Assembly: GCF_000018105.1 (NCBI RefSeq)
Contig: NC_009925.1
Span: 6,471,725-6,503,724 of the forward strand
Source of the DNA: Acaryochloris marina MBIC11017
GTDB lineage: Bacteria; Cyanobacteriota; Cyanobacteriia; Thermosynechococcales; Thermosynechococcaceae
Length of the DNA stretch: 32,000 bases
Reading direction: 5' to 3'
Part shown: positions 1,940-28,890 of the stretch, piece after piece
How the letters are laid out: every line of letters starts with the position of its first letter
Numbering within the stretch: the first letter of the stretch is position 1
The notes under the pieces: model-generated
Told to the model about the DNA's origin: nothing
The model's input: the letters and a program-made list of their open reading frames with translations, nothing else
Databases searched by the model: none
Translations under genes and position numbers: made by a program

Positions 1940-1956
1940 CTGACTTCCTCAGGCGG

Positions 1957-3141
1957 TTAAGCCGCGACAGCGGGATGGTTGTCATAAGCGAGGGAGCGCA
2001 CTCGCTGAGCCGTTTTCTGTACCCCATCCAGATCAAATCGAGTGGATTGAGGTTTGGAATTTAGAACTATTTCTACCCGTTGAGCTAGACGTTCAGGGGC
2101 TACATCAACTTTTTGCAGCATCTGAGCCACCCCAAGCTCGTCTAATCGGCGGACTCGCATCGTTTGTTCTTGGTCGTCGTTGCCTGTAAAGGGCAACATC
2201 AGGGCATTGACCCCTGTGGTCAAAATATTCATCGTGGTGTTGTACCCCGACATGCTGACGGAGAGATCCGCCTGCTCCATATAGGCGAGTAGGTTGGGAG
2301 TATAGCGATGAATATGTAGGTTATGACAGTCTCGGCCTGCCTGTTTTAATTGCCAAAACACTGACTCAGGAATAAAAGGTCCAGCAAACATCTGAATATG
2401 GTGGGGAATGCGCGTTGACAAGTATTCCGCTGCACCAACCATGCCCCTCAGCAACTCATGTCCAAATCGACCACCTCCCACACTGACGAGTATCATGGGA
2501 GCCTGTCGGCTCAAGGCCCATCGATCCACCAATGTCAGTCGATTATTTTCGGGTTGTTGGGCCACATAACCCGTATAGTGAACCTCACAATTGAGATCCT
2601 TAACCCGAGAGAAGCTATCTTCCAGGGGATGTAAGTTGGGGTCTCCATGAATCAGTAATTGATCAAAATATTGATTCATCAATCGACAGATTTTAGCCTC
2701 ATGGCGGGCCTGGTCTTGCTTGGTCACCACAATATCGCGCAGGCTACAGACCACTTTGGTACCACTGGCCTTAGCGGCTTCCATTAAGGGAATAAGTTCA
2801 AAGGAAAACCGCCGTCGACCAAAGGGGAAGAGTTCCATCATCAATACATCGGGCTGAAAAGTTTCTATTTGGTTAAGGAGCAAGTGTTTACGGGTCTCCT
2901 GCACAACCTCCAAACTCAGGGACTGATCTACTGGACGCAGTTCACGGAACTCCGTGTCCGTTTTGATCGCTGGTAAATTGACAACAGTGACGCCATTGGG
3001 GACTTGAAAATTTTGAATCACTTCCCCCCCATTGATAAAGCAAATCTCAAAGTCTTCCACTAGGCCCCGCACAATTTCCATACTGCGGATCAGGTGCCCC
3101 ATACCCAGAATGTGTTGGCAATAAAACATCAATTTTTTCAT
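1957..3141 (-). CDS. GT-B fold glycosyltransferase, MurG/UDP-glycosyltransferase-like (COG4671-type), paralogue 2 of 3
   Basis: 394-aa ORF with MKKLMFYCQHILGMGHLIRS, VVCSLRDI and SGYNTTMN. It is visibly similar along its whole length to 770..1939. The gap to the next gene is 17 bp. Confidence 0.75.
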   Translation of the reverse strand: MKKLMFYCQHILGMGHLIRSMEIVRGLVEDFEICFINGGEVIQNFQVPNGVTVVNLPAIKTDTEFRELRPVDQSLSLEVVQETRKHLLLNQIETFQPDVLMMELFPFGRRRFSFELIPLMEAAKASGTKVVCSLRDIVVTKQDQARHEAKICRLMNQYFDQLLIHGDPNLHPLEDSFSRVKDLNCEVHYTGYVAQQPENNRLTLVDRWALSRQAPMILVSVGGGRFGHELLRGMVGAAEYLSTRIPHHIQMFAGPFIPESVFWQLKQAGRDCHNLHIHRYTPNLLAYMEQADLSVSMSGYNTTMNILTTGVNALMLPFTGNDDQEQTMRVRRLDELGVAQMLQKVDVAPERLAQRVEIVLNSKPQSTRFDLDGVQKTAQRVRSLAYDNHPAVAA

Positions 3142-3183
3142 GACAAATATCCAGAAATTTGAATTACAGAAATGTAGCTGCCC

Positions 3184-4383
3184 TTACGCCAAAGCCGGTT
3201 CTCGATCAGGGGGGCGAAGGAATAGGTTGGATAACTGATTCGCAATATTAGGTAAACCATTGAAATCGAGTTCTAAAGATGGGGCAGCTCGATCCTCTAG
3301 TTGGGCGATGACCGCTTGCATTAAGGATTTCGGCTGTAGATGATTGGGATGAATCGCCCGAATCAATCCGTTGTGCATAAACCGTTCTGCCCGAATCAGC
3401 TGTTCCTGGGAAGGGGTAATTCGAGGAACCACAACTGTACGTTTGTCCAGAGCTAAGATTTCAGTCAAGGTGTTGTATCCTCCCATGGAGACAACAGCAT
3501 CCGCAGCATCTAAATAACCAATTAGATTGTCCGTAAATGCTTGAACTTCGACACCAGAGTATTGCAAGGCTTGTGTTTGGATATCCTGCTGCTGAGATAA
3601 GGGCATCTCTGGACCGCAGAGAATAACACTTCGGACCTTCACCTGATTTGGCAGGTATTTCAATCCTGCGAGGTAAGCTTTCACCAGAGGATAACCATCT
3701 TCTCCTCCACCTGGAGTCACTACCACCAACTTCTCTGAAGGCTTTATCCGCAGGAACCAGCGCAGTTCCATTCGATTAAGCCCCTGAGAAGATTTACGTA
3801 TATAGCCGCAATAATGGACCTTTTTCGCAATCGGTAATGGGAATTGGTACTCTTGAGCAACATCAAATAGCTCAGCCATACCTACCACTAGGACTTGGTC
3901 ATACCAAGATTGGATCGCCTGGTAATATCCCTGTCGTTTCCATTCGCCAATCGTTTTAACAGGACTATCCAGAATATCCCTAAGGAGAAGTACTTTTTGG
4001 GTCTTTGGTTGGTGAGTTTCAAGATGTTCTAGGGTGCTCAGTAATTCTTTCTGAATCCCATAGGGCTTTTTGTCAACAAGCAACACATCTGGTTTAAAGT
4101 GCAGCGCGGCTGAATGAATTAAGTGGGAGCGCCACTTTAGAGTTTCTTCTAACTCTGTTCCCAAGTATTTTGCGAATAAAGTTCCTGACTGTCCTCGATT
4201 AAGGCAAGGAAGTTTGATGTAATCCAAGCCTTTAGGTAGCCGAAAGGCCTGCAGCATCGGTGAACCAGATACCAGTAAAATAGATAGGTCTGTTTGGTCC
4301 TTCAGCAGGTATTCACAGATAGAAAGCATTCTGCGGAGATTGCCAAGACCGAATGCGTCATGAGAGTAAACCATCAGTCTCAT
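3184..4383 (-). CDS. GT-B fold glycosyltransferase, MurG/UDP-glycosyltransferase-like (COG4671-type), paralogue 1 of 3
   Basis: 399-aa ORF with MRLMVYSHDAFGLGNLRRM, LLLRDILD and MGGYNTLTE. It is the most divergent member of the trio and the first gene of the four-gene minus-strand GT operon. Confidence 0.75.
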   Translation of the reverse strand: MRLMVYSHDAFGLGNLRRMLSICEYLLKDQTDLSILLVSGSPMLQAFRLPKGLDYIKLPCLNRGQSGTLFAKYLGTELEETLKWRSHLIHSAALHFKPDVLLVDKKPYGIQKELLSTLEHLETHQPKTQKVLLLRDILDSPVKTIGEWKRQGYYQAIQSWYDQVLVVGMAELFDVAQEYQFPLPIAKKVHYCGYIRKSSQGLNRMELRWFLRIKPSEKLVVVTPGGGEDGYPLVKAYLAGLKYLPNQVKVRSVILCGPEMPLSQQQDIQTQALQYSGVEVQAFTDNLIGYLDAADAVVSMGGYNTLTEILALDKRTVVVPRITPSQEQLIRAERFMHNGLIRAIHPNHLQPKSLMQAVIAQLEDRAAPSLELDFNGLPNIANQLSNLFLRPPDREPALA

Positions 4384-5216: not shown

Positions 5217-5885
5217 CTAAGTCTTTAACCGATACCCAACCCCACGAACGGTTTCAATAAGTGAGTTGCCGAGCTTCTTGCGCAAATAGCCAACGTAAAC
5301 ATCAACGATATTGGAACCAGGATCATAGTCATATCCCCAGACCCGATCCAAGAGTTGCTGCCGACTGAGGACCTGCCCAGGGTGACGGAAAAATGTTTCT
5401 GCCAGAATAAACTCTCTGGCTGGCAGTTCGATCCATTGATCATCCACTTTGGCCTTACGAGTACGCAGATCTAGCACCACATTATGGGCCGTCATTGTCA
5501 TCGTCTCAGGAGGAGTGCCAATAGACACTGTTCTCAGTCGAACTCTAACCCTTGCCAATAACTCTTCAAACCGGAACGGCTTTGTCATATAGTCGTCCGC
5601 TCCTCCTTCAAGTCCAGAGATTTTATCTTGAATATCATCTCTGGCGGTCAAAATGATGACAGGGAGTACAGAACCTTGACCTCTCAAATCAGCTAAAACT
5701 TCTAGCCCATCTCTTCCGGGTAATCCCAAATCTAGTATCAGTAGCTCAAACCCATCACTTAAAGCGAAGGATAAGGCTTCATGGGCATTTTCTACCGTAG
5801 TCGTAGCGTATCCGTGGCTCTTTAAACCTTTCTCTATAAAGGATGCAATTCTAGGTTCATCCTCTGCGATCAGAATATGTGCCAT
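5217..5885 (-). CDS. OmpR-family response regulator (receiver plus winged-helix DNA-binding domain)
   Basis: The ATG at 5883-5885 gives MAHILIAEDEPRI. Further motifs are LLILDLGLPGRDG and KPF, followed by the C-terminal Trans_reg_C pattern LPAREFILAETFFRHPGQVLSRQQLLDRVWGYDYDPGSNIVDVYVGYLRKKL...TVRGVGYRL. The track ORF extends 8 codons further upstream. Confidence 0.9.
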   Translation of the reverse strand: MAHILIAEDEPRIASFIEKGLKSHGYATTTVENAHEALSFALSDGFELLILDLGLPGRDGLEVLADLRGQGSVLPVIILTARDDIQDKISGLEGGADDYMTKPFRFEELLARVRVRLRTVSIGTPPETMTMTAHNVVLDLRTRKAKVDDQWIELPAREFILAETFFRHPGQVLSRQQLLDRVWGYDYDPGSNIVDVYVGYLRKKLGNSLIETVRGVGYRLKT

Positions 5886-6044
5886 CGATAGTGGGCAGTT
5901 GTTTAACAATGACTACTTCTTAGACGATCATAATCACTGATACAGTTCCTCGACCATAAAGCCTGCTAATTTCTTTTTTCCAATACCTGACAGTTACAAT
6001 TATGAATATCAATAAAGTCTTGAGAAACGATGAGCCAATTGCCA

Positions 6045-6961: not shown

Positions 6962-7771
6962 ATGCAATCTAAAGCATCCGTTCTAGAACAAAATACTCTT
7001 GTGAAAGAACTCCCTCGCATTGATATCATTGGCTCCCGAGTAACGGCAGCTTCTTTTGATGTCCTAAATGAGGTGATTTTAGATTGGGCCAAACAAAGAC
7101 TCAGCAAATGTATTTGTGTTGCCAACACGCATATGTTGGTAGAAGCGCACCGAAGACCCAGTTTTGGCGAAATAGTTCAACAAGCTGATGTCGTGACCCC
7201 CGATGGCATGCCCTTGGTTTGGATGCTGAGAATATTGGGAGCTAAAAACCAAGATAGAGTTGCTGGACTCGATCTTCTACAAGCCCTTTGCCGCAAAGCA
7301 GAGAAGGAAAAAGTTAGCGTCTATTTTTTGGGATCAATGGATCTCATTCTCCAAAAAATGAGAACCCGTTTACTGGTGGAGTATCCTGATTTAGTAATCG
7401 CAGATATGGAGCCTTTACCGTTTAGGCCGCTCACCGTAGAAGAGGATGAAGCTTTAATTCAACGGGTCAATGCTAGTGGGGCTGGCCTTGTAATGATTGC
7501 CCTTGGATGCCCCAAGCAGGAATGTTGGATGGCAGCCCATAAAGACCAAATTAATGCAGTTATGATTGGTTTGGGAGGCGCGTTTCCAGTCTATGCAGGT
7601 ATACATCGCCGAGCAAGCGGCTGGGTCAGGCACATGGGAATGGAGTGGTTCTACCGACTTATCCAAGAACCTAAAAGATTATGGAAACGTTATGCTTCAT
7701 CCATACCTCTATTCATATACCTAGCTATCAAGCAACTATGTTATCGGTTTGCCAGTTTAGCTTTTAAGTAA
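6962..7771 (+). CDS. WecB/TagA/CpsF-family glycosyltransferase (GT26)
   Basis: 269-aa ORF with VVTPDGMPLVWMLRILG, VYFLGS and ALGCPKQECWM, all typical of the WecG/TagA N-acetylmannosaminyl-type transferase family. Confidence 0.85.
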   Translation: MQSKASVLEQNTLVKELPRIDIIGSRVTAASFDVLNEVILDWAKQRLSKCICVANTHMLVEAHRRPSFGEIVQQADVVTPDGMPLVWMLRILGAKNQDRVAGLDLLQALCRKAEKEKVSVYFLGSMDLILQKMRTRLLVEYPDLVIADMEPLPFRPLTVEEDEALIQRVNASGAGLVMIALGCPKQECWMAAHKDQINAVMIGLGGAFPVYAGIHRRASGWVRHMGMEWFYRLIQEPKRLWKRYASSIPLFIYLAIKQLCYRFASLAFK

Positions 7772-7957: not shown

Positions 7958-10900
7958 TTATTGACTTGTAAACATCAGAGTTCTGATTTTCCACGGGGCT
8001 ACGACATTCGGACGATCCATCTCATAATTCGTTTCTAATAAATCAATAGTTTGTTTGAAATGGAGGTTCAAATCGTTCGTGACAGCCAATGGTGCTTCCT
8101 CTCCATGGCATTCATAACAACGCATCACCCAGGCTTTAGGCTGATCCTCAGATCTCTTTAAGGCCATCAGCACTAAATTATCTGTCCCTAGCGATAGGAA
8201 CTGATTTTGCAGTAGTCGTCCCTGCTTTTGTTGATCTAATGAAATCAACGTCCGGAGAGGGCGATTGATTTCGTATCCCTTGTGGGTGGTTCGGGCTGTT
8301 TGCCAGGAACCTGCATGGGGGTAAATGGCATAGGTAAATTGATGATGACCGCGATCGCATCCTGGATCCGGCCAATTCGGACTACGTAATAACGTCAAAC
8401 GCAGTTGGTCAGGCTTAGCATCGTAACCATACTTACAGTCATTCAAGATGCTTACCCCAGCCATTCCATTTGCATCTGTTAAATCAGCCCATTGCAAGGC
8501 TGGCACTTCCCATTTCGCCTGTTCTCTATCGTCTAGCTGAGGATTCGGCAAAGTAGGTCGCTGAATCGCACCACAGGGAATTTCGTAGGTGGCAGAGTCA
8601 GACGATATTGTGAGAGGGAACACCGTTTTGACCAGTACTTGACTTTCTTGCCAATCTACCGTGGTTTCAATTTTGAGTAATGGTGCATCCGTATCGAGCA
8701 CATAGTCCTGGCAAAATTGGGATTGACCAAACTGGAGTTTAACCCGCAATCGTTGTTGTAGTGGACCTTGACTCAACCATTCAATGGATTGCAAGGTTGC
8801 TCCCGGTAGTCGCTTGTGTTCGTAATTAGGGTCTATGTTCCAAGCATCCCAATATTGGCCTTTGTCGGTGAAGAACTGGAGTTGATTCCCTGGGCCAGAC
8901 AACATTTGGCGTTGGGTTGCTTTGTCATAAATTTGAGCTAGCTCTCCAGTTGATTCATTAACTTGCACCTGTAAATAGTCATTTTCCAAGATCCAATTTT
9001 TAGGTGCAATGTCGGGTTGATCAGGTTTAGCGCTTACTAACGGGGATAACCAATAGAGCTGATACCCCACTGAAGGCACTGCAGCTATAAACCCTAAGGA
9101 GTTAGGTTGATTGGGGTGGCGCTGAACGGGCTGCGTTTCTCCCTCAATGGTGGAAATTTGCCATCGTTTCTGAGTGTCAGGCAGTTCTACCCACACTAAT
9201 TCAGACCGTGGCCAGTTCAGAGAATTAAACACAATAACGGGAAGGCTATCTGAGGTGGGAGCTTGAGGAATGTCAATCGCGCTTGCGATCGCATCCAACG
9301 CAATATGCAAATGTTCGGTTGCAGTCTGTTTGGCTGATTCCCAATCGCAATTGGCATCCACAAAAACTTGAGGGATTGAAGACCCTGGCAAGATATCGTG
9401 GAACTGGTTGAACAGGACCTTCTTCCAAGCTTGTTCTAGGTCATCTTTGGGATAGGAATGATCGAGGGTGAGGGTTGCGATCGCATTCCACAATTCAGCC
9501 TCGTACAGCAGCTTTTCGCAATCACGGTTGTAATGTTTTTGATCTGCATGGCTGGTGTAACACCCCCGATGCAATTCTAGGTAGAGTTCATCATCCCAAA
9601 CGGGTACCTGTTGAATCTGAGTTTCCACCTGTTGGCAGAAACGTTCAGCTGTGGTTGGTTGGAGCTTTGGAAACAGGGAAGATTGCTGCCACTGACGAGC
9701 CACTTCCAGCATGTCACGGGTTGGACCCCCACCATGATCACCAACCCCCGGCAACCATAGACAGTCTTTCACTCCCGTTGCCGATTCCCATCCCTGGGCA
9801 TAGGTTCCCATTTTGACGGGGTAAATCTGCTCTCCAATGGGAGGCAACATAATGCTGAAAATTTCAGTACCATCTGGCGATCGCCACTGAAATACTTCAT
9901 AGGGAAACTCCGTGGTATCGTTCCACCGCAGTTTCTGGGTTAAAAAATAGTCAATCCCACCCTGCTTTAGAATTTGGGGGAGCTGCCAGCAGAATCCAAA
10001 ACTATCGGGAAGCCAAGCTGTCTTGCTGATGCAGCCGAATTTTTCTTGGGTATACTTTTGCCCATATAGAACTTGACGAACTAATGATTCGCCACTGATC
10101 AAGTTTAATTCTGATTCTACCCAAAGCCCGGCAGCTATCTCCCATGTCCCTTTATCGACTTGTGCTTGAATTTGAGCAAACAGATCTGGACGGTTCTGCT
10201 CGAACCAAGCATAAAGAGCTGGGGAGGAATGGCAGAAAATAAGTTCAGGGAAATCCGCTTGTAAATTAAGGACCGATTTAAATGTTCGTTCTGCGGCTTC
10301 CCAGGTTTCTGCTACGGGCCAGAGCCACGCTAAATCCAAATGGGCATGACCAATCCAGTTGATTTGGCGCTGCTGTAACCAGGTTTTCCAAGGAGCAAGA
10401 TGTTGATGAAGTTGGTTCAAACTAAGGCTAAATGCTTCAGGATCATTGACATGGGACCAGTTGATGGCGTTAATGGCTTTATTTAGAGAGGCTAATTCTT
10501 CTGGCGCAAATTTTGTGAGATAACCTTGTAATACAGCCAATTCATCGGCGACTTTACCTGGATCAAGAAGAGGAGGTGGGGGTTCGTATATCAGTTGAGA
10601 GCCCACTAATGCCCCTGGATCATGACCAGGGCTAACCAGTCGCAGGGCAACCGTAATTTCCTCCCCAGGTTGAGCCGCAGAACTCAAAACAATCCGAGCC
10701 GTACAGTCGTATAAATCTCCTGCTTGGACCAACGCTCCGTTGACAAAAATTTCGGCTTGTTCTGCCCACCAAGTCAGAGCCAGCCTCAGCTTGCAGTCTG
10801 CTAGAGGGTAACGAAATTGATCATTGGGGATGGAGATAACCTGTCCCAGCCACAGCACTAAATGACCTTGGGGCCAGTCAATATGCTCCCTAGCATTTAA

Positions 10901-11083
10901 TTGTCTCGGCGACCATGTTTGCCAAGTCTGTGGATTAAGACCTTTTTCGACAGGCAGATCATCTAAACAAGCTTGCCAATTGCCTTGAATATTCAACTGA
11001 GTCAGCTGATACAGTTTCAACATCGCGGAATCAACAAGGTTCTCCTGCTCAAGGGGGTGTTCTGGAGTGGACTTTGACTGCAT
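7958..11083 (-). CDS. GH38 alpha-mannosidase
   Basis: 1041-aa ORF. It carries GHAHLDLAWLWP (the GH38 N-terminal metal-site motif) and AWLPDSFGF (catalytic nucleophile context). Size and domain order fit bacterial cytosolic GH38 enzymes. Confidence 0.9.
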   Translation of the reverse strand: MQSKSTPEHPLEQENLVDSAMLKLYQLTQLNIQGNWQACLDDLPVEKGLNPQTWQTWSPRQLNAREHIDWPQGHLVLWLGQVISIPNDQFRYPLADCKLRLALTWWAEQAEIFVNGALVQAGDLYDCTARIVLSSAAQPGEEITVALRLVSPGHDPGALVGSQLIYEPPPPLLDPGKVADELAVLQGYLTKFAPEELASLNKAINAINWSHVNDPEAFSLSLNQLHQHLAPWKTWLQQRQINWIGHAHLDLAWLWPVAETWEAAERTFKSVLNLQADFPELIFCHSSPALYAWFEQNRPDLFAQIQAQVDKGTWEIAAGLWVESELNLISGESLVRQVLYGQKYTQEKFGCISKTAWLPDSFGFCWQLPQILKQGGIDYFLTQKLRWNDTTEFPYEVFQWRSPDGTEIFSIMLPPIGEQIYPVKMGTYAQGWESATGVKDCLWLPGVGDHGGGPTRDMLEVARQWQQSSLFPKLQPTTAERFCQQVETQIQQVPVWDDELYLELHRGCYTSHADQKHYNRDCEKLLYEAELWNAIATLTLDHSYPKDDLEQAWKKVLFNQFHDILPGSSIPQVFVDANCDWESAKQTATEHLHIALDAIASAIDIPQAPTSDSLPVIVFNSLNWPRSELVWVELPDTQKRWQISTIEGETQPVQRHPNQPNSLGFIAAVPSVGYQLYWLSPLVSAKPDQPDIAPKNWILENDYLQVQVNESTGELAQIYDKATQRQMLSGPGNQLQFFTDKGQYWDAWNIDPNYEHKRLPGATLQSIEWLSQGPLQQRLRVKLQFGQSQFCQDYVLDTDAPLLKIETTVDWQESQVLVKTVFPLTISSDSATYEIPCGAIQRPTLPNPQLDDREQAKWEVPALQWADLTDANGMAGVSILNDCKYGYDAKPDQLRLTLLRSPNWPDPGCDRGHHQFTYAIYPHAGSWQTARTTHKGYEINRPLRTLISLDQQKQGRLLQNQFLSLGTDNLVLMALKRSEDQPKAWVMRCYECHGEEAPLAVTNDLNLHFKQTIDLLETNYEMDRPNVVAPWKIRTLMFTSQ

Positions 11084-16500: not shown

Positions 16501-17067
16501 TTATGATTCTTCTGGCAAAATTGCTTCTAGGTAGGGTGCAATATAGTTGCGACCCTGTTCAAGATAGTAGGGAGTAAAAAGGGACTCAAACTCTTGAGCT
16601 ACGACCTGTGTGGCGGATTCTAGCCGCTGGCGGCCATAGACCAAGAATTGTGCTGCGGATGAAGCATAGTATTCTCGCTCTGCACCCTCAATATGCTTTT
16701 TAAAGGCAGCATGATAGAGCTCGCGGACCTCATTCATCAGCTGTTCAATCGGGGGTGAGAAGTGAATAGAGTCTCCACTGGGGAGATCGATTTGCTTGGC
16801 CAGAATAAATCCAATCACGGTTCTCATACATTCACGGGTTTGGTCTACTGAAAGGCACTGTGGGTCTTGTCGGCGAAATCCCCATTGAGTGCAACCATTG
16901 GTTACTTCCAGTACTCGCAATAGGGCCAGTTTATCTAGCTCTTTGGAATCGAACTGTTCTAAGGCCAAAATATGATGCTCAACCCGGTGCTGAAAACTGG
17001 CAAAATCAGCCTCAAAATATTGTCTGAGCTCCTTGATTTGGGACAGTTTCTGCCAGTTGGGCAACAT
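16501..17067 (-). CDS. Hypothetical protein, last gene of the CIS-associated operon
   Basis: 188-aa ORF with an ATG start, 75 bp downstream of the 820-aa gene on the same strand. It looks predicted-helical and soluble, with no recognisable motif. Confidence 0.6.
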   Translation of the reverse strand: MLPNWQKLSQIKELRQYFEADFASFQHRVEHHILALEQFDSKELDKLALLRVLEVTNGCTQWGFRRQDPQCLSVDQTRECMRTVIGFILAKQIDLPSGDSIHFSPPIEQLMNEVRELYHAAFKKHIEGAEREYYASSAAQFLVYGRQRLESATQVVAQEFESLFTPYYLEQGRNYIAPYLEAILPEES

Positions 17068-17142: not shown

Positions 17143-19605
17143 CTAAAACTGAGGTGGCAATTCTGCTGGTGGTGGCGAATTACGATCGCGGGGTACGGGC
17201 TGAATACCGCCGGGTGGATCGGGTAAAGGCGGAGCAGGTGCTGCCGCTGCGTTGGGATCTACCCCAGGAGCTGCCGCTGGAGGAGTTGAATTATTCGCCT
17301 CAGCACTTACGGGGGCATCGGACGCTTGAGCCACTGGAGCAGGAGGTGCCACAGTTTCAATCACCACGGATCGATTTTGTTGTTCACCTTTGGCATTCGT
17401 GACTTGCAGGGTTAGGGTTTGGGTGGCAGAGGTGGGGCCAAACGATAAATTTGCCTTGCCCTGGAGGGGAACAGTCCCTGGCGCAGGCAGTAAATTGACC
17501 TTAGTATTTTTACTCCCTTTAACCTTCCAGGATACCTTCACGATCAACGGCGTTTGATCTTTAAGGGCAAACACATATTTGGGTTTCGCAATCTGGCCAT
17601 TAATTTTGAATTCCTGGATTTGTACTGGCCCAGGCTGAATCTGGATCGGCTCGGTTTTTTGAATAATCGGAGATGGCTCTGCAGGCGGATTAGCCTGGGT
17701 GGGTTTCGGGGCGACTTTGAGCTCAAAGGTATAGGTCCCGGCGTCTTGAACCCCAGTTGGTACATTCAGACAAACTAGGGTTTGGACGTCCAAACGACAA
17801 TTTTTTTGTAGGGACTGGGGAATACCTTGAGTGAAGTCAAATATTTTGGGAGCTGTGACTGGTGCATTATCTGCTCCCCGACCAATTAGTGTCACTTTGG
17901 TTCCTTTGGCCTGGGTGATTTTCCAGTTCAGAAAAATCCCTGATGGTCCCCTTGGGGGAACCTGACCAATGGGTTCTGTATAGGTGGTCTTTGTGGATTC
18001 AAATTGTTGAATTTGAGGGGGAGGGAAGGGTTGAACCACAATTGCCTCTGTTTTGGCCGCAATGGGTTGAGGGACGCCCTCGGGTTGAGGGGAGAGAGAC
18101 AGCTCAAACCGATAGGTGCCAGGTTTGCGTGCATCCGTGGGCACCTGCTGACACCGCAGGACCTCAGTTAGGGTACAAAAATGGCTAAGGTCTGAGGGTA
18201 TTCCCTTTTGGAAATCGTAGATAAAGGGACCACTCATCACGACCCCGTCAGGAGAAACTCCTTTCAGTTGAAGCTGCTTGAATTTCTGAGGATTTTTTAT
18301 GGTCCAGTTCAGTTCAATGGGACGACCATCGGCCTCTTTGAGGGTATAGGTTGCTGGGGCAAAGCTGATAATCTCGGCTCGGGCTGGGGGACGGGTCAGT
18401 AACCACCATACGAGTAAGGCAATCCCAACTAAGGTGCCAAACAGGGTCAAAATAACCAGCAATAATTGCCACCAAGGTCGAGGTTCCCAAATCAATGCTC
18501 CTTGAAAGCGATTATTGGCAAGGGGGAGTTGCTGGGCATCTTCCAACTCCAGGGCAAAGTTGAGGGGGCGACCATAAAAGGGGCGCTTCCACCATTTGGT
18601 GGGCTGAACTTCTAAGCTGACCTTGGTCGAGGCATGGGGTAATAAATGGACTTGGGTGGGGTTAAGAGTATAGTCGCAGAGTTCTTCCGCATCTAGATTT
18701 TGGACCTGTAAATTGAGAGTTCGTGGGGTATTTCCAGCATTGTGAAGCCGTAGTTCAAACCATCCGGACTGGTTCTTGACTTGGCTGACCAGGGAAATAA
18801 GCTCGATATCAACCTGGTAAATCGGTAAAACTTGTAAATAAACCGCTTCCAACAACACCAGTTCCGGGTTGTTCATGGAAAACAGGCGGATGGTGGGGGT
18901 ATAAATGCCTGCATCCGTACCTAGGGGCGGCTGAATCAAGACCTGAATTTGGCCCGTATCCCCTGGGTTGAGTTCCAGGGCTTCACTGGCAATCACAACG
19001 CCGGTTTGCGGTCCTTCTGGATAAATAATCTTGACCCATTCGGTAGGCAGGTCTGGACAGATTAAGCGGAATCGATCGACGCGATCGCATCGGTTATCCA
19101 CCAGCACCGTTAAGGCCAACGCATCTCCAGTTTGTAAAGGCAGGGGAGACTCGGCCGTGGTGGTTGGGGTGATGCCTAAAACCGGATTGCTGACTTCTGC
19201 CGTTTCCCGGATGTAGGACAGCACCTGTAGCCGAGCCGGATAGCGGATCGGCGTCTCTTCTGGGTAATGTTTGGGGGCATCAATCACTAAGGTATAGGGA
19301 TAAAAGCCCGGTAGGGTTTCCGTTGGCACCTGAATACGGAAGAACACCTCGCTACTTTCTCCAGGGTTTAGGGCCAGACTTTCCCGGGAGGAGGTACACC
19401 ATTGGCTGACGATATCCGTGGGGTCTGTGATATCGATGTGGATAATGGCACTGTGGATTCCATCATTGGTGACGGTCACACTCAGTTCGAAAATTTCCCC
19501 CGCCTGAATCGCCACATCGCCGGATGGGTTGCGGATAATGCCCAAGGGATTGCCCACTTTCTGGGCTTGCAGGCCAATTTGATCAATTTGGGTGAGGTCT
19601 GTCAT
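17143..19605 (-). CDS. Single-pass membrane protein: three N-terminal beta-sandwich-like modules, a TM helix, three Ig-like repeats and a Pro/Ala-rich tail
   Basis: 820 aa.
- The TM helix PWWQLLLVILTLFGTLVGIALLVWWLL spans about aa 378-403 (nt 18397-18474).
- The N-terminal part has repeated ...NPGES.EVFFRIQVP-type strands, resembling CARDB/NEW3-like modules.
- After the TM there are three roughly 110-aa repeats. Two of them carry a conserved Cys pair (HFCTLTEVLRCQQVP and KNCRLDVQTLVCLNVP).
- The tail is APPAPVAQ...PPLPDPPGG...PPPAELPPQF. Confidence 0.8.
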   Translation of the reverse strand: MTDLTQIDQIGLQAQKVGNPLGIIRNPSGDVAIQAGEIFELSVTVTNDGIHSAIIHIDITDPTDIVSQWCTSSRESLALNPGESSEVFFRIQVPTETLPGFYPYTLVIDAPKHYPEETPIRYPARLQVLSYIRETAEVSNPVLGITPTTTAESPLPLQTGDALALTVLVDNRCDRVDRFRLICPDLPTEWVKIIYPEGPQTGVVIASEALELNPGDTGQIQVLIQPPLGTDAGIYTPTIRLFSMNNPELVLLEAVYLQVLPIYQVDIELISLVSQVKNQSGWFELRLHNAGNTPRTLNLQVQNLDAEELCDYTLNPTQVHLLPHASTKVSLEVQPTKWWKRPFYGRPLNFALELEDAQQLPLANNRFQGALIWEPRPWWQLLLVILTLFGTLVGIALLVWWLLTRPPARAEIISFAPATYTLKEADGRPIELNWTIKNPQKFKQLQLKGVSPDGVVMSGPFIYDFQKGIPSDLSHFCTLTEVLRCQQVPTDARKPGTYRFELSLSPQPEGVPQPIAAKTEAIVVQPFPPPQIQQFESTKTTYTEPIGQVPPRGPSGIFLNWKITQAKGTKVTLIGRGADNAPVTAPKIFDFTQGIPQSLQKNCRLDVQTLVCLNVPTGVQDAGTYTFELKVAPKPTQANPPAEPSPIIQKTEPIQIQPGPVQIQEFKINGQIAKPKYVFALKDQTPLIVKVSWKVKGSKNTKVNLLPAPGTVPLQGKANLSFGPTSATQTLTLQVTNAKGEQQNRSVVIETVAPPAPVAQASDAPVSAEANNSTPPAAAPGVDPNAAAAPAPPLPDPPGGIQPVPRDRNSPPPAELPPQF

Positions 19606-19621
19606 GAGCTTTAATCATCCA

Positions 19622-21865
19622 TTAGGGTTTGCCACAGGGGAGAGTTTGTCGCTGTATTCGGGACTGAACGTCTTTGACCGTGGTGGAAAATAAGCGAACT
19701 TGTGTATCATCGCTGCCGCTCAGCACGAGGATCTTGCCACCAATCACCTTCAGGTCCACACTGTTGATGCGATCGGAGGAACGGGGATGCAGAATATTTT
19801 GAAAGAAGTTTGCCATGCTAACGGTAGAGGGTTCATACAGTTCAATCCCCTCTCGGAATTCAGGATCTCGTTGACCATTGGGCAACAAGGGCCACAGCAT
19901 GACCCGACCATCATCACCCCCGCTGGCTAGGTAACAGCCATCGTCACTCATAGACACGGATCGCACGGGCTGTGTAGCCTCACTATGGGACCAGATTTCA
20001 GGCTTTAGGGTTTTGCAGGTGGTCGAATCCTGAAGGCAGGGGGCTAAATTCCACAGGGTAATATTGCCTTGGGTATCTGCGGTAGTCAGGAGCGTTGGCG
20101 TATCACGAGCTGTATCAATGCTTTGAATATAGTCGCGGTTGGTGCCTGATTCGGGATAGATAAGGGGCTCTAGGGCTTGTTTGGACTGCCAATTCCATAA
20201 GACCAACTGATTTTGTTGACCTGCGATCGCAAGCCACTGATCTGGATTTCCTAACAGCACTGAATCGTAGATGGCGAAAGGCATTTTTTGCTCTTTGAAG
20301 ATTTTGCGCTGTTGAGCTGTCCTCTGGGTTGCCCAGACAACAATCGTGCCACTGCCATGACTACTGAACAAATAGCGAGAGTCTTGACTAAACTCCACAT
20401 CCAAAACGCGATCAGCTTTTTCGTAGCTAAAGGTTTGCAGCGGATCTGTATGATCCGTATTTAAATCCCATAACTGAATTTGGCCATTTTCCAGACCCAC
20501 CGCCACCAAATCGTTATTGACAGGGCGATAGGTAATCCCACGAATGGCTTTTTGTTGCTGAGCCAACTGTTTGCCCCGCTGAATAATATTTTCCAAATAG
20601 GGGAAAGCCCACCAAGCGCTGAGTCCTTGCACACTCCAACGAATCGCCGTCGTATCGTTAGAACTGGACACAGCCTGATCCGCAATACCGTTAAAGGCGA
20701 CGGAGGTCACGGCCCCCCGATGACCATAATTGCGGTTGTATTGATTAAAGGGAGAAATCCACCATAGCCATACCCCGCCTACCAAAGCCATTAAGATCAC
20801 CAGCCACAACGGGATCCGAGGTTTAACTTTTAGTTGGAGAACATGGGTTTCATCGCGACTATCAATGCGTTCGACATTTGACCAAACGGCCTCCACTTGT
20901 ATGGTATGTCGCTTGGAAAAGCCCAACCAGTGGCGATCAGCTTCAGCAATCAACGAAAGTTTGCCAGAATCACCCAATCCCAACTTGATATTGTCTGGCA
21001 TTACCTCAAAGGTGCAGTGAGGGGGGGGATCGACGATCTCTGCTTGGGCATGTTGATATAGGTTACTGTTATTTTCAAATTGCAACTCATAGATAACCGG
21101 AGGAGATTGCCAAAACTTCAATTGAAACTGCTCTGGAATGCAATGTTCCTCTGGCTGGGCCTGAAAGGCCACAAAACCTAAGGGATCAATTTTCAAGTGT
21201 CCTTCAATTTGAGTGGGTGGCCCATAGGCATGACTCGCCTCAACCTGGAACCGATAGCCATGACTAGGAGCCTGCACCGGATCAGCAGGTACTTTACAGT
21301 TAAAGGTGGTTTGCACCCGTCCTCCAGGAGCCAGTTTTACTGTTTGCTCGTTGCCTTCCGGGAACCAACTGGCATCAATGCCTTGGAGACTGACGGTTGC
21401 AGTCGTTTTTAACTGACTGGGGTTACTGACCCATACCGGAATTTGAATTTCCTCTCCTGGATCAGCATCAAAATCTTCAACGGGTAAATTGAGCCCCAAG
21501 GGCACTGCCCCTGTTCCCTGCGCCAGAGTGAGCTTTAGAGATTCCCGTTCTTCTTCCTGCAGTTCAATGGAAAACACCCTTACAGCTAAGCTCATTAAGC
21601 CCACAAACCCTGGCACGGGACTATCGGTGATCTCAATTTGGAATTGGGTCGTATCTCCAGGAGGATTTTTACTACTAATGTCTGGTGAAACGTGATACCA
21701 TTTGCGCCCAGCTAGATGATTGGTCCCTGCAGCTGAGACCTCAAGCTGGAAACTGGCATATCGATCGCTGTGATTGACCACCTCCACGGCAAAGGCAGAG
21801 GGAGGACCTCCAGGGGTAAAGGCCAACTGCTTGGGTAATACTTGGGTGGCAAGCTGCTTTTCCAT
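19622..21865 (-). CDS. Single-pass membrane protein: N-terminal beta-sandwich-like modules, a TM helix and a seven-bladed WD40 propeller
   Basis: 747 aa.
- The TM helix IPLWLVILMALVGGVWLWWI spans about aa 351-370 (nt 20756-20815), with K/K/R on its N-terminal side.
- The C-terminal half has about seven WD40-like blades: GHRGAVTSVAF...IRWSV, ...GQIQLWDL, ...GTIVVWA, ...NQLVLWNW, ...GNITLWNL, PVRSVSMSDDGCYLASGGDDGRVMLWPL and ...GSDDTQVRLFS. Confidence 0.85.
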   Translation of the reverse strand: MEKQLATQVLPKQLAFTPGGPPSAFAVEVVNHSDRYASFQLEVSAAGTNHLAGRKWYHVSPDISSKNPPGDTTQFQIEITDSPVPGFVGLMSLAVRVFSIELQEEERESLKLTLAQGTGAVPLGLNLPVEDFDADPGEEIQIPVWVSNPSQLKTTATVSLQGIDASWFPEGNEQTVKLAPGGRVQTTFNCKVPADPVQAPSHGYRFQVEASHAYGPPTQIEGHLKIDPLGFVAFQAQPEEHCIPEQFQLKFWQSPPVIYELQFENNSNLYQHAQAEIVDPPPHCTFEVMPDNIKLGLGDSGKLSLIAEADRHWLGFSKRHTIQVEAVWSNVERIDSRDETHVLQLKVKPRIPLWLVILMALVGGVWLWWISPFNQYNRNYGHRGAVTSVAFNGIADQAVSSSNDTTAIRWSVQGLSAWWAFPYLENIIQRGKQLAQQQKAIRGITYRPVNNDLVAVGLENGQIQLWDLNTDHTDPLQTFSYEKADRVLDVEFSQDSRYLFSSHGSGTIVVWATQRTAQQRKIFKEQKMPFAIYDSVLLGNPDQWLAIAGQQNQLVLWNWQSKQALEPLIYPESGTNRDYIQSIDTARDTPTLLTTADTQGNITLWNLAPCLQDSTTCKTLKPEIWSHSEATQPVRSVSMSDDGCYLASGGDDGRVMLWPLLPNGQRDPEFREGIELYEPSTVSMANFFQNILHPRSSDRINSVDLKVIGGKILVLSGSDDTQVRLFSTTVKDVQSRIQRQTLPCGKP

Positions 21866-23606: not shown

Positions 23607-24989
23607 CTAGGAGGTAGATGCTGCAGGTGTAGCTAGAAGTTGACGATAATGCTGGCGTTGCCAAGCATAGTGAAGGATATTGGTGCCAAACTCCTGGGCC
23701 GTGCGAATCTGGTCTCGGGCAAACCCTTCTTTGCTGCCGCCGCCCCAAACCACTGATAAATCGCCCACCAACATCAGCAGATGGTCACTGAAAAACAGTT
23801 CGACCGGCTGTTGGTTGACGATGGGTAACGCACCAAATTGAAAGGGTTGGCATCGAATGGGATGGTCTGCTGGCATGGTTTGCAGAGACTGTAGAGGCTG
23901 CCCCAATTGCTCAGCTAAGGTTCGAAAAGGGAGTCCTGTTTCATTCAGCTTGGCACTGAGAGCAGTTTGAGTAGCAGATAATTCGCGGGTAATATCTTGG
24001 CGCAACGGTTGGAGAGTCTGATGATCGGCAGATGCCCCCAACGCCTGTGAACGATCGATTTGAGACAGAGCTGTTTGTAGTTGGGCTTTAACGGTAAATA
24101 GTTCTGCTAACTGAGTGCCCCGAACTGAGACTTCAACCCACAAAAATCCCCCTTGCATGAGGAAATATCGGAGCGATCGCACTTGCACATCCGTTAAAGA
24201 TTGAGCCGATTGTGTCTGCAGGTACAGCACATCGTAATCCCTGAGATCAACCGCTTGGTTGCGATCCACCAGCTCAATGGGATGAGGCGCATCCACGGCC
24301 AGCAGATTGGGATACAGCACCTCAATAGATCTAAGAAAGGCTTGGAAATTAGTGATTGACTGCTGATTCTGAGGGGAGGGCGCAATGGGACTGACTTGAG
24401 CGATCTGGAGCACGGCTTGAGGACGAGATCGCGGCTGTCGTCGATACCGCAAATCCACCTGGTTAATTTGGGGAAAGAAGGGATCCGTCGGAAGCTCTAG
24501 CTGAGCTTGGGTATCAATGACGATCCGACAAATCTCAACTTCTCCGGGGCCGGGGGGATGGGTCTTTTCATCAATTCGAAACACCTCTGTCAGCACAGGG
24601 TTTTCCTCAGATTGCTGAAGTTGTTCTGGATCGACGTATTGGAGAACTAAATAGATGGTGGTCGGTTGCTCCACCCGAGAAGCAATCCTAAAGTCGATGG
24701 GCTCAGGGACTACGATGCAATTGCCTTGGTCATCAATGGCCATTCCCGGTTGAACCTGCAGCCATCGTTGGTCTTGAAACGGCTGGGAGATTTTGTCCGG
24801 TGGGGAAATGGGATGGATGCCTAACCCACAGACAATCCCCGGCTGATGGAGGGATTGGTAATACAAACTCTGGCGTTGGCGATGGTAATCATAGGCCAAC
24901 CGCCAACGCTCAGCATTAATCAACAGCCCATCCGTTACCCGCAGACGTTGCAGGGGTTGAACCGGGGGAGTGGGTGGTGAGTAGGTCAT
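23607..24989 (-). CDS. CIS-associated protein of unknown function with a possible DUF4159-like C-terminal half
   Basis: 460 aa, and its stop is 4 nt from the next start. The N-terminus is LRVTDGLLINAERWRLAYDYHRQRQSLYYQSLHQPGIVCGLGI. The central segment YDVLYLQTQSAQSLTDVQVRSLRYFLMQGGFLWVE resembles the DUF4159 signature (...LY..G...F.L.....LR.YL..GGFL..D). It occupies the slot directly after the gpI-like gene. Confidence 0.65.
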   Translation of the reverse strand: MTYSPPTPPVQPLQRLRVTDGLLINAERWRLAYDYHRQRQSLYYQSLHQPGIVCGLGIHPISPPDKISQPFQDQRWLQVQPGMAIDDQGNCIVVPEPIDFRIASRVEQPTTIYLVLQYVDPEQLQQSEENPVLTEVFRIDEKTHPPGPGEVEICRIVIDTQAQLELPTDPFFPQINQVDLRYRRQPRSRPQAVLQIAQVSPIAPSPQNQQSITNFQAFLRSIEVLYPNLLAVDAPHPIELVDRNQAVDLRDYDVLYLQTQSAQSLTDVQVRSLRYFLMQGGFLWVEVSVRGTQLAELFTVKAQLQTALSQIDRSQALGASADHQTLQPLRQDITRELSATQTALSAKLNETGLPFRTLAEQLGQPLQSLQTMPADHPIRCQPFQFGALPIVNQQPVELFFSDHLLMLVGDLSVVWGGGSKEGFARDQIRTAQEFGTNILHYAWQRQHYRQLLATPAASTS

Positions 24990-28357: not shown

Positions 28358-28762
28358 CTAGGTAATGGGGGTCAGATAAAAGGGATAAACTAAACTCCGG
28401 TAATCGTGGGTCTGTTTAGGATGGTATTCGAGGGTGATATCAACCCGCCCCTCAATGGGGTCTGGTTCTGTATAAACACCATCTAGAACAATGCGGGGTT
28501 CCCACCGTTGCAAGGCTTCTGTGACGTACAATCGAATCAACAAAAGGGTTTGAGTATTCATCGGGGCAAAGGTCAACTCGGAGAGACGGGAACCAAACTC
28601 AGGCCGATAGACCCGCTCCCCCAGTTTGGTCCCCAGAACGATTGCGATAGATTCTTCTATGTTGCGAATGGCGTGGGCACTAAATCGTAAATTCCCCTGG
28701 GTATTCACCCCAATGGGAAACGTCCAACCCGTCCCCAAATGAGCAGCTTGACCGTCCACCAT
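28358..28762 (-). CDS. GPW/gp25-family baseplate wedge protein (Afp9/Pvc9 equivalent)
   Basis: The ATG at 28762 gives MVDGQAAHLGTGWTFPIGV...IEESIAIVLGTKLGERVYRPEFGSRLSELTFAPMN...ALQRWEPRI, the gene-25-like lysozyme-fold signature. The track ORF starts 9 codons earlier on GTG at 28789. Confidence 0.9.
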   Translation of the reverse strand: MVDGQAAHLGTGWTFPIGVNTQGNLRFSAHAIRNIEESIAIVLGTKLGERVYRPEFGSRLSELTFAPMNTQTLLLIRLYVTEALQRWEPRIVLDGVYTEPDPIEGRVDITLEYHPKQTHDYRSLVYPFYLTPIT

Positions 28763-28890
28763 ACCCCTGTCCCATCTAGTAGAGCTCACTATAAGGGCTA
28801 GGTAAAAGAGGGACTATTGGCCAAAAGTCGTACCTATTGGGATGAAGATCACTAAACCTTTGTCATTAGACCTGACCCTAAGCGACTGGC

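Follow-up and report, generated by a model that had tools for sequence, protein, structure and literature searches.

Closest described systems and the locus of A. marina

The best described protein with which the pair treated here can be compared is CisA (SCO4242) of Streptomyces coelicolor, a bitopic protein with a cytoplasmic N terminus and an outer C terminus (N-in/C-out), as was determined with PhoA and LacZ fusions (eLife 2025, PMC12237407). Its gene directly follows the baseplate genes of a contractile injection system (CIS), at the position usually taken by a tail-fibre gene; the cytoplasmic part is largely disordered and predicted to contact Cis11, the outer domain resembles solute-binding proteins, and firing requires CisA, which was proposed to act as a sensor or checkpoint (PMC12237407). 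In the thylakoid-anchored CIS (tCIS) of Anabaena, Cis13 attaches to the baseplate via its N terminus and inserts into the thylakoid membrane with a C-terminal transmembrane (TM) helix; Cis12, which comprises more than 1100 aa, has an extra domain that provides a wide connector to the membrane, and Cis19 forms a crown (Nat Microbiol 2022, PMC8894136). Thus, a cyanobacterial CIS is attached to the membrane from the cytoplasmic side via proteins encoded beside the baseplate genes. The present study deals with a stretch of 32,000 nucleotides from Acaryochloris marina MBIC11017 (NC_009925.1, positions 6,471,725 to 6,503,724; referred to as the window), in which the genes of two single-pass membrane proteins of 747 aa and 820 aa follow directly downstream of baseplate genes, in a slot like that of cisA.

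With moderate confidence, we regard the 747-aa and 820-aa proteins as ancient bitopic paralogues with N-in/C-out orientation, which together with a Cis13N-DUF4159 protein, joined in many genomes by a membrane sensor of the HAMP type, form an accessory module of one cyanobacterial CIS lineage and adapt its baseplate to the membrane. The pair is probably an undescribed device that ties the CIS to the membrane or times its firing. Three sandwich modules, predicted to be cytoplasmic, in front of a single TM helix, encoded in a CIS operon and present as a paralogous pair, constitute an arrangement which is undescribed, and full-text literature searches yielded no publication on the 747/820-DUF4159 module. 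Membrane adaptors are known (the Cis13/Cis12 anchors, CisA, and TssJLM), and the 747/820 pair would be one built from unrelated parts.

For CIS that are neither type VI secretion systems (T6SS) nor released extracellular CIS (eCIS), we know of just two solutions for membrane contact or firing, namely Cis13/Cis12 of Anabaena and CisA of Streptomyces. The module would represent a third and unrelated solution, if our reading is true. It is spread over many orders of cyanobacteria, and its carriers include bloom-forming, mat-forming and unicellular marine genera. Its study may help to establish what the CIS present in many cyanobacteria do; for the Anabaena CIS, programmed cell death and the formation of ghost cells have reportedly been proposed.

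By analogy, CisA appears to be the nearest functional precedent for the pair. Both loci share the gene slot behind the baseplate genes, the proteins possess a single TM helix, and the closest solved relative of the A. marina Cis11 is that of the CisA-dependent system. In contrast to CisA, two paralogues are present, with folded scaffolds of three sandwiches and with a WD40 propeller or immunoglobulin-like (Ig-like) domains and a Pro-rich tail as outer parts, a comparison that was made by description only. Furthermore, the Cis13N-DUF4159 protein belongs to the block described here, as does, frequently, a sensor with a HAMP domain.

With the Anabaena tCIS, the locus has in common a Cis13-like N-terminal domain encoded in the operon and a Cis12 with an extra domain. 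Unlike in Anabaena, the Cis13-like protein of A. marina possesses DUF4159 and no TM helix, Cis12 comprises just 351 aa, and the TM helices reside on two separate large proteins. The 747-aa, 820-aa and Cis11/gpJ-like (J) proteins showed no sequence match to the Anabaena tCIS chains in PDB; for the J protein, none of these chains reached an E-value of 0.001. Its best solved relative was Cis11 in the baseplate of the cytoplasmic S. coelicolor CIS (PDB 9GTP, chain 1K; E 4.4e-113), and the core of the Cis12/gpI-like (I) protein matched chain E of the same structure (9gtp_E; E 1.7e-6). After those of cyanobacteria, the next relatives of J in the plasmid collection belonged to Deinococcus and Streptomyces (36-38% identity). 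Membership in the Anabaena-type, thylakoid-anchored CIS was therefore rejected, the baseplate being closest to the CIS of S. coelicolor, and its lineage, to judge from these matches, resembles the cytoplasmic CIS of Streptomyces.

The original prediction had likened the two proteins to a T6SS membrane complex made from unrelated parts. In agreement with unrelated parts, no TssJ, TssL (DotU) or TssM (IcmF) domain was detected in the operon proteins with Pfam and NCBIfam scans, the domain composition differs completely from that of a T6SS membrane complex, and the CIS belongs to the eCIS/cytoplasmic-CIS lineage and not to that of T6SS. Nothing observed points to a channel or to outward firing. 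The likeness itself, that is, an envelope complex which holds the baseplate of a contractile tail at the membrane, exists by hypothesis only and is looser than the likeness to CisA.

Architecture of the two membrane proteins

Both open reading frames (ORFs) lie exactly where they had been predicted on the minus strand, and the recurring strand motifs PPGDTTQFQIEIT, DPGEEIQIPVWV, NPGESSEVFFRIQVP and NPGDTGQIQVLIQP were all found in the translations. A hydropathy scan revealed one Trp-flanked TM segment per protein and no N-terminal hydrophobic segment in either of them, in agreement with the postulated absence of a signal peptide. Likewise, the AlphaFold2 models displayed three beta-sandwich modules ahead of the TM helix in both proteins, and the positively charged stretch K-V-K-P-R in front of the helix of the 747-aa protein is present in the translation.

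The model of the 747-aa protein was calculated from 43 aligned orthologues and reached a mean predicted local distance difference test (pLDDT) value of 86. It comprises three beta-sandwiches (residues 1-347), a helix (353-370) and seven four-stranded blades (386-729). Pfam, AlphaFold2 and Foldseek agree on the predicted seven-bladed WD40 propeller: PF00400 was found with an E-value of 1.9e-21 (76 bits, cutoff 27), and the best Foldseek matches of the propeller were Tup1, RACK1, G-beta and the designed nvWrap-T (target TM-score 0.72-0.86). Four Cys residues are highly conserved among 60 sequences, namely C610 and C617 (60/60 each), C744 (59/60) and C644 (58/60).

Orthologues of the 747-aa protein form about 120 clusters of 700-820 aa, which are cyanobacterial wherever a source is named, and an HMMER search of the whole library with the 747-aa protein yielded 241 representative clusters, nearly all of 700-850 aa. 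The family was found by the full-length search and the search of the whole library; a word-indexed search with the N terminus alone gave 2 matches only, one of which (P0002) is a gene that is split in its assembly. The best match (P0123, 99% identical) stems solely from assemblies of raw sequencing runs, and the 747 gene may be absent from the deposited A. marina annotation or may be called differently there.

The model of the 820-aa protein (mean pLDDT 81.5) contains the sandwiches at residues 21-373, a helix at 378-401, Ig-like domains at 411-752 and a disordered tail at 758-820; hence, the three Ig-like domains and the Pro/Ala-rich tail of the original prediction can be seen in the model. 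The NCBI counterpart is 100% identical and annotated as a COG1470 family protein of Acaryochloris marina, and the family comprises more than 368 homologues from cyanobacteria, with lengths of 820-1220 aa. Module 1 (residues 34-108) matched PF10633 (NPCBM_assoc/NEW3) with 38 bits (cutoff 24.4), and orthologues matched CARDB, FixG_C and Ig_VWA7. The names COG1470, NEW3 and CARDB denote a fold and not a function. In the 747-aa protein, nothing above the Pfam cutoff was obtained for PF10633, and its link to the 820-aa protein is solely via profile-profile homology.

The first two of the three Ig-like domains are sequence repeats with one invariant Cys pair each. These pairs (C477/C485 and C603/C612), which had been pointed out before, are conserved in 70/70 homologues, and in the model C603 and C612 are in register on adjacent hairpin strands. 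The repeat occurs in 2 copies in the A. marina protein and in Nostoc, in 3 copies in P0008, P0024 and P0030, and in 4 copies in P0045 and P0057 of Roseofilum and in P0119 of Limnospira (alignment A1, columns ~700-1000), so that the length of the outer stalk differs among genera. The 820 family was judged not to possess a second TM helix, since the additional hydrophobic stretch LVLLDVVYLQVLP... lies within confidently modelled beta-strands.

At the extreme C terminus of the 820 family, a nearly invariant peptide, SPxELPPxF(D/N), is located at the end or within 3 residues of it in about 66/70 sequences. The counterpart in the A. marina protein is PPPAELPPQF (17146-17175, minus strand). The Pro/Ala low-complexity tail in front of this peptide varies in length across the family. 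To our knowledge, the peptide is unlike PEP-CTERM or any other known sorting signal.

About half of the aligned 820-family orthologues possess an extra N-terminal domain of approximately 90 aa, which is missing from the A. marina protein. The domain is winged-helix-like, all of its matches being below threshold (MarR_2 in 7/10 members; HTH_DeoR, 1.8e-6; HTH_IclR, 1.5e-5), and its top PDB matches are archaeal winged-helix structures. Several orthologues carry the NCBI label 'transcriptional regulator', and together with the weak helix-turn-helix (HTH) matches of the MarR, IclR and DeoR types in the extension, this label might suggest that the 820 family is a membrane-tethered regulator of CIS expression, with an N-terminal winged helix, a TM helix and a sensor outside, in the manner of ToxR or CadC. 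However, the A. marina protein and many orthologues lack the extension, which cannot even fit at this locus because the stop codon of the 747 gene is located 16 nt ahead of the start codon of the 820 gene. Moreover, the HTH matches all remain below the curated cutoffs, and the conserved core of the family consists of scaffold, TM helix and Ig stalk. A function as regulator is thus hardly conceivable. In Coleofasciculus, the 820 orthologue P0016 carries the winged-helix-like extension, and a 747 homologue (P0132) is encoded elsewhere in the genome.

Foldseek searches of both models against PDB yielded generic WD40 propellers and Ig-domain arrays (HYDIN/ASH-type arrays, alpha-2-macroglobulin MG domains and protocadherins) and no part of a CIS, T6SS or phage. 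In addition, neither protein gave a match in sequence searches of PDB (phmmer and family profiles), and the search with the DUF4159 protein gave nothing useful. The 747-aa, 820-aa and DUF4159 proteins were without match in PHROGs. No NCBIfam CIS family was matched by the 747-aa or the 820-aa protein; among their neighbours, the 460-aa protein matches CIS13_fam.

Common origin of the two N-terminal scaffolds

That the two proteins are paralogues, as had been claimed, is not evident from pairwise comparison, in which BLAST gave no significant similarity (best E-value 0.13), but was borne out by profile-profile alignment. Using hhalign, an 11-sequence alignment of the 747 scaffold and a 26-sequence alignment of the 820 family were aligned over 290 columns with a probability of 98.1% and an E-value of 1.1e-13. 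The alignment is collinear across the three modules (747 residues 23-331 versus 820 residues 39-356), and an independent run with alignments taken from the genome loci resulted in an E-value of 4.4e-13. A phmmer search of the whole library with the 747 N terminus revealed no identifiable member of the 820 family among the best 150 matches, which were almost exclusively proteins of 700-850 aa with the architecture of the 747-aa protein.

Several controls were negative in hhalign. The 747 scaffold did not match the C-terminal Ig repeats of the 820-aa protein (E 0.034, probability 1.5%) or its own WD40 part (E 0.074), the 820 scaffold did not match its own C-terminal Ig repeats (E 0.34), and nothing was obtained between the scaffolds and the J-like and DUF4159 families (E 0.04-0.35). 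These controls argue against a generic signal of the Ig fold. Furthermore, the score between the families exceeds the similarity between modules of the same protein (1e-4 to 5e-6).

Both families also share the motif P-x-(I)P-(L/W)W-(L/W)Q at the entry into the membrane, with the consensus P-x-I-P-L-W-L-Q in the 747 family and E-P-R-P-W-W-Q in the 820 family. From the sequence comparisons it is concluded that scaffold and TM helix were most probably duplicated as a unit and that the different C-terminal parts were acquired later.

Linkage to contractile injection systems

The run of genes from gp25 to the 820 gene is a tight operon which is closed by the 747 and 820 genes. On the minus strand, the order is gp25, J, I, DUF4159, sensor, 747 and 820, with gaps of 7, 30, 97, 4, 3 and 16 nt. 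The genes for the gp25-like, TIGR02243 and TIGR02242 proteins lie adjacent to each other in the window and gave strong scores (Table 1). Upstream of gp25, unrelated genes are located (chorismate mutase and a CBS-domain protein). Promoter and terminator scans at the ends of the operon were uninformative.

The gene order was compared in a scan of one genome per species, which yielded 206 stretches encoding relatives of the 820-aa protein. Of these, the 79 best loci were examined, nearly all of which are labelled as cyanobacterial. Among 68 loci whose upstream sequence spans at least 2.6 kb, 59 carry a 747 homologue upstream of the 820 homologue. Where at least 9 kb were available, 48 of 52 loci possess the 747 homologue immediately upstream and the DUF4159 gene in front of it; I and J were found in 47 of these 52 loci, gp25 in 44, and a homologue of the 577-aa sensor in 20. 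The block keeps its order across Nostocales, Oscillatoriales, Leptolyngbyales, Pseudanabaenales, Chroococcales and Acaryochloris, and the flanks outside of the CIS block vary between the genomes.

Three further records tie the block to complete CIS. On a Pseudanabaena plasmid, the genes for a tube-like protein, a 2531-aa protein, VgrG, PAAR, gp25, J, I, the DUF4159 protein, a cache-domain sensor and the 747 homologue form one run. A Crocosphaera contig likewise carries, in one run, genes for a PAAR-like protein, two tube proteins, I, the DUF4159 protein, a dCache-HAMP sensor, the 747 homologue and an 820-like protein; a Pvc16-like cap gene is located near this block on the opposite strand, and J and gp25 are encoded elsewhere in the genome. 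Within 40 kb of a Brasilonema plasmid, genes for sheath, tube, a VgrG-like protein, gp25, J, I, the DUF4159 protein, a DUF4255 protein and an AAA+ protein are present. Taken together, the tight operon, the synteny across orders and the contiguity with tube, VgrG and PAAR genes in some genomes strongly support the proposed link of the pair to CIS.

The two genes downstream of J contribute a possible attachment. Residues 14-119 of the 460-aa protein match the N-terminal part of CIS13_fam with an E-value of 5.7e-9, which is below the family cutoff; the protein looks like a fusion of a Cis13-like, putatively baseplate-binding N-terminal part and a C-terminal DUF4159. No TM segment was detected in this protein by the hydropathy scan; the Cis13-like protein has lost, or never had, a TM helix, and the neighbouring genes supply TM helices instead. 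Compared to the 190-aa Cis12 of S. coelicolor, the Cis12-like protein possesses approximately 170 extra N-terminal residues in a beta-sandwich region, for which Pfam TRAPPC13_C was obtained with 0.0015. Residues 1-170 are weakly similar to scaffold modules of the 747-aa and 820-aa proteins (hhalign E-values 1.8e-6, at a probability of 90%, and 5e-5). This N-terminal sandwich may be a docking site for the scaffolds, which would fit the membrane connector formed by Cis12 of Anabaena.

Some observations weigh against a fixed association of the pair with CIS. No sheath, tube or spike genes are located within the window, which thus contains the baseplate part of a CIS rather than a complete one. 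In the J-I cluster of the Brasilonema plasmid, neither the 747 nor the 820 protein is encoded nearby, and a plasmid of Oscillatoria nigro-viridis carries gp25, J, I and genes for DUF4157 effectors and none of the module; hence, the module is not obligatory for this type of CIS. In Coleofasciculus (L002, L003 and L007), at L026 and on a Kovacikia plasmid, the 820 homologue is unlinked from the operon, and neither a baseplate gene nor a 747 gene lies within 10 kb upstream of it at L002, L003, L007, L026 and some further loci. Also, the winged-helix and CIS13 matches all lie below the curated cutoffs. The persistent core consists of I, DUF4159, the optional sensor, 747 and 820, and represents an accessory block which is not obligatory.

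These solitary 820 homologues, as well as the J-I clusters without the pair, would fit a separate envelope-spanning complex, for example for organisation of the surface or envelope or for self-protection, which shares no more than a transcript with the baseplate genes and is not physically connected to the CIS. Sandwiches of the NEW3, CARDB and COG1470 types are common among surface proteins, and the fact that Foldseek yields only generic Ig-domain arrays is also in line with such a complex. Nevertheless, we consider it improbable: the order of I, DUF4159, the sensor where present, 747 and 820 outlasts the split from J and gp25 in Crocosphaera and is kept from Nostocales to Chroococcales and Acaryochloris, the intergenic gaps amount to 3-16 nt, and the block itself includes a domain similar to the baseplate-binding part of Cis13.

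One locus was found on a 6.2-kb contig (L021) of a metagenome-assembled genome (MAG) labelled Candidatus Sericytochromatia, which carries the sensor, 747 and 820 genes with 44-53% identity to those of Acaryochloris. Sericytochromatia are non-photosynthetic relatives of cyanobacteria and lack thylakoids, and if the binning is right, the module would function at the plasma membrane there. Misbinning is possible because of the identity of 44-53% and because the Stenomitos MAG SMAG_U16506 (L014), whose isolate label is similar, shows a near-identical layout.

Membrane topology

For both proteins, N-in/C-out is likely and fits the data better than the reverse orientation. In each of them, 350-470 folded residues precede the sole TM helix without a signal peptide, which supports N-in. 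For proteins inserted via Sec, a long folded N-terminal domain crosses the membrane only if a signal sequence is present. Invariant Cys residues occur in both families only C-terminal to the TM helix; those in the N-terminal parts are less conserved and occur singly per module. Moreover, in the 747 family the N-terminal flank of the TM helix is richer in K/R in 33 sequences, compared to 6 with the opposite bias.

N-terminal fusions in orthologues point in the same direction. Besides the winged-helix-like extension in the 820 family, P0283, a 747-type protein of 1043 aa, contains a partial HisKA domain and a receiver domain in frame ahead of the scaffold, TM helix and WD40 propeller, and the linker between receiver domain and scaffold is charged, probably helical, and has no hydrophobic segment. 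P0283 could be a natural fusion of two-component signalling domains or an artefact of the assembly.

The predicted orientation was thus supported by the absence of a signal peptide, the fusions, the placement of the Cys residues and the K/R bias of the 747 family, but not by the flank charges of the 820 family, which are opposite. In 60 of 70 sequences of this family, the C-terminal flank contains more K/R, and the net charge is about +1.8 versus 0. According to the positive-inside rule, these charges would place the C terminus in the cytoplasm. WD40 propellers of the G-beta type are usually cytoplasmic in bacteria, and NEW3/CARDB-type sandwiches are usually extracytoplasmic; all three points speak against N-in/C-out. 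They would agree with a topology which is reversed, or which differs between the two proteins, such that the WD40 propeller or the Ig-like domains and tail would be cytoplasmic and bind the baseplate and the sandwiches would be outside. In view of the long folded part ahead of the sole TM helix without a signal peptide, the winged-helix-like or receiver domains fused to the N terminus, and the fully invariant Cys pairs confined to the C-terminal parts, such an orientation is very unlikely.

With N-in/C-out, either the periplasm or the thylakoid lumen would harbour the WD40 propeller and the Ig stalk. The outer part of the 820-aa protein, if fully extended, would exceed the width of the thylakoid lumen, which on general knowledge suggests the periplasm and the plasma membrane. 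Seen directly are the domain architecture, the homology of the scaffolds at the profile level, the operon, its synteny with baseplate genes and the kinship of the baseplate with that of S. coelicolor, from which we infer the topology, a baseplate contact, a function as anchor or trigger, and the membrane concerned.

Proposed role of the module

A membrane adaptor for the baseplate appears to be the most economical reading; the contact is putative, and the role is deduced from synteny and architecture. The cytoplasmic three-module scaffolds would bind the periphery of the baseplate wedge, most likely via the extra N-terminal sandwich of Cis12 or via the Cis13N-DUF4159 protein, and the TM helices would fasten this contact to the membrane. 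On the far side of the membrane, be it periplasm or thylakoid lumen, the propeller of the 747-aa protein and the Ig-like stalk and Pro-rich tail of the 820-aa protein might keep the complex in position, relay a signal of the envelope that licenses firing, or do both.

A variable sensor gene is located immediately upstream of the 747/820 pair. In A. marina, the 577-aa sensor consists of TM1 (22-40), an extracytoplasmic loop of approximately 130 aa, TM2 (173-191), HAMP and a cyclic-nucleotide-binding region, and no recognisable output domain was found in a Pfam scan. In other genomes the slot is taken by a HAMP-cNMP sensor, by a dCache or cache-domain sensor (Crocosphaera and Pseudanabaena), or remains empty, as in Nostocales, where the DUF4159 gene and the 747 homologue lie too close together for a sensor gene to fit in. 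The sensor, together with the fusion of HisKA and receiver domains in P0283, the proposed function of CisA as sensor and checkpoint, and the closest relationship of the baseplate to the cytoplasmic, cell-death-inducing CIS of Streptomyces, could indicate that the pair and the HAMP sensor are mainly a signal-sensing trigger or checkpoint, in which the outer WD40 and Ig-like domains detect envelope stress or an external cue and relay it via the TM helices to an otherwise free-floating cytoplasmic CIS, similar to CisA. We regard a predominantly signalling role as possible and as a close competitor of the adaptor, though as clearly less likely. Neither the 747-aa nor the 820-aa protein contains a recognisable output or enzymatic domain, and the large, rigid scaffolds of three modules and the Ig stalk of variable length resemble structural spacers. 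In addition, a trigger overlaps with an adaptor and does not exclude it.

Beyond the membrane adaptor as such, a more far-reaching assembly can be envisaged. A complex of sensor, WD40 protein and Ig-stalk protein would span the envelope and hold a baseplate of the eCIS lineage at the cytoplasmic membrane, in a cell-anchored mode resembling that of T6SS that evolved independently from unrelated parts. Short peptides are common ligands of WD40 propellers, and the C-terminal peptide of the 820-aa protein might therefore dock in the propeller of its paralogue; in this assembly, SPxELPPxF would do so outside of the membrane, and the number of Ig repeats (2-4) would set the periplasmic reach. As a whole, this assembly is a doubtful proposal.

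Features and neighbouring genes of the window

The features of the operon and of the two membrane proteins are listed in Table 1.

Table 1. Operon genes and protein parts identified in the window (positions refer to the window).
Feature	Position	Strand	Evidence
gp25/Cis9-like baseplate protein, first gene of the operon	28358..28789	-	Pfam GPW_gp25, E 1.8e-19
Cis11/gpJ-like baseplate protein (Baseplate_J), 725 aa	26173..28350	-	TIGR02243, 657 bits
Cis12/gpI-like baseplate wedge protein (Tail_P2_I), 351 aa	25087..26142	-	TIGR02242, E 9e-38, and CIS12_fam core
Cis13N-DUF4159 protein, 460 aa, soluble	23607..24989	-	CIS13_fam, residues 14-119; Pfam DUF4159, E 3.7e-10
Membrane sensor, 577 aa	21869..23602	-	Pfam cNMP_binding, E 6e-17; weak HAMP match; TM scan
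Gene of the bitopic 747-aa protein	19622..21865	-	ORF, translation, AlphaFold2 model
747 residues 1-347, scaffold of three beta-sandwich modules, predicted cytoplasmic	20825..21865	-	AlphaFold2, hhalign
747 residues 351-371, Trp-flanked TM helix (IPLWLVILMALVGGVWLWWIS), K-V-K-P-R ahead	20753..20815	-	Hydropathy, AlphaFold2
747 residues 382-735, seven-bladed WD40 propeller, predicted extracytoplasmic	19661..20722	-	Pfam, Foldseek
Gene of the bitopic 820-aa protein	17143..19605	-	ORF, translation, AlphaFold2 model
820 residues 21-373, scaffold of three beta-sandwich modules	18487..19545	-	AlphaFold2, PF10633 (module 1), hhalign
820 residues 378-402, Trp-flanked TM helix (WWQLLLVILTLFGTLVGIALLVWWL)	18400..18474	-	Hydropathy 2.86, AlphaFold2 (378-401)
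820 residues 411-752, three Ig-like domains	17350..18375	-	AlphaFold2, Cys conservation, alignment A1
820 residues 753-820, disordered Pro/Ala-rich tail	17146..17349	-	pLDDT < 50

Downstream of the 820 gene, at a distance of 75 nt, an ORF of 188 aa is located (16501-17067, minus strand), which matches phrog_3318 of unknown function with an E-value of 3e-35. A counterpart was not found in any of the related loci examined; the ORF is therefore probably outside the module and was rejected as a member. Between 12723 and 16321, three further ORFs (239 aa and 329 aa on the minus strand, 332 aa on the plus strand) showed no match in Pfam or PHROGs, the 329-aa and 332-aa ORFs showed none in NCBIfam either, and counterparts of the three were not found in the related loci.

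Near the start of the window, three tandem paralogous glycosyltransferase genes encoding proteins of 389, 394 and 399 aa with a GT28 C-terminal domain were identified on the minus strand (770-4383). In their vicinity, genes for an OmpR-type response regulator (5217-5909), a WecG/TagA-type transferase (6962-7771) and a GH38 alpha-mannosidase (7958-11083) are located, and this neighbourhood looks like a separate, glycan-related region.

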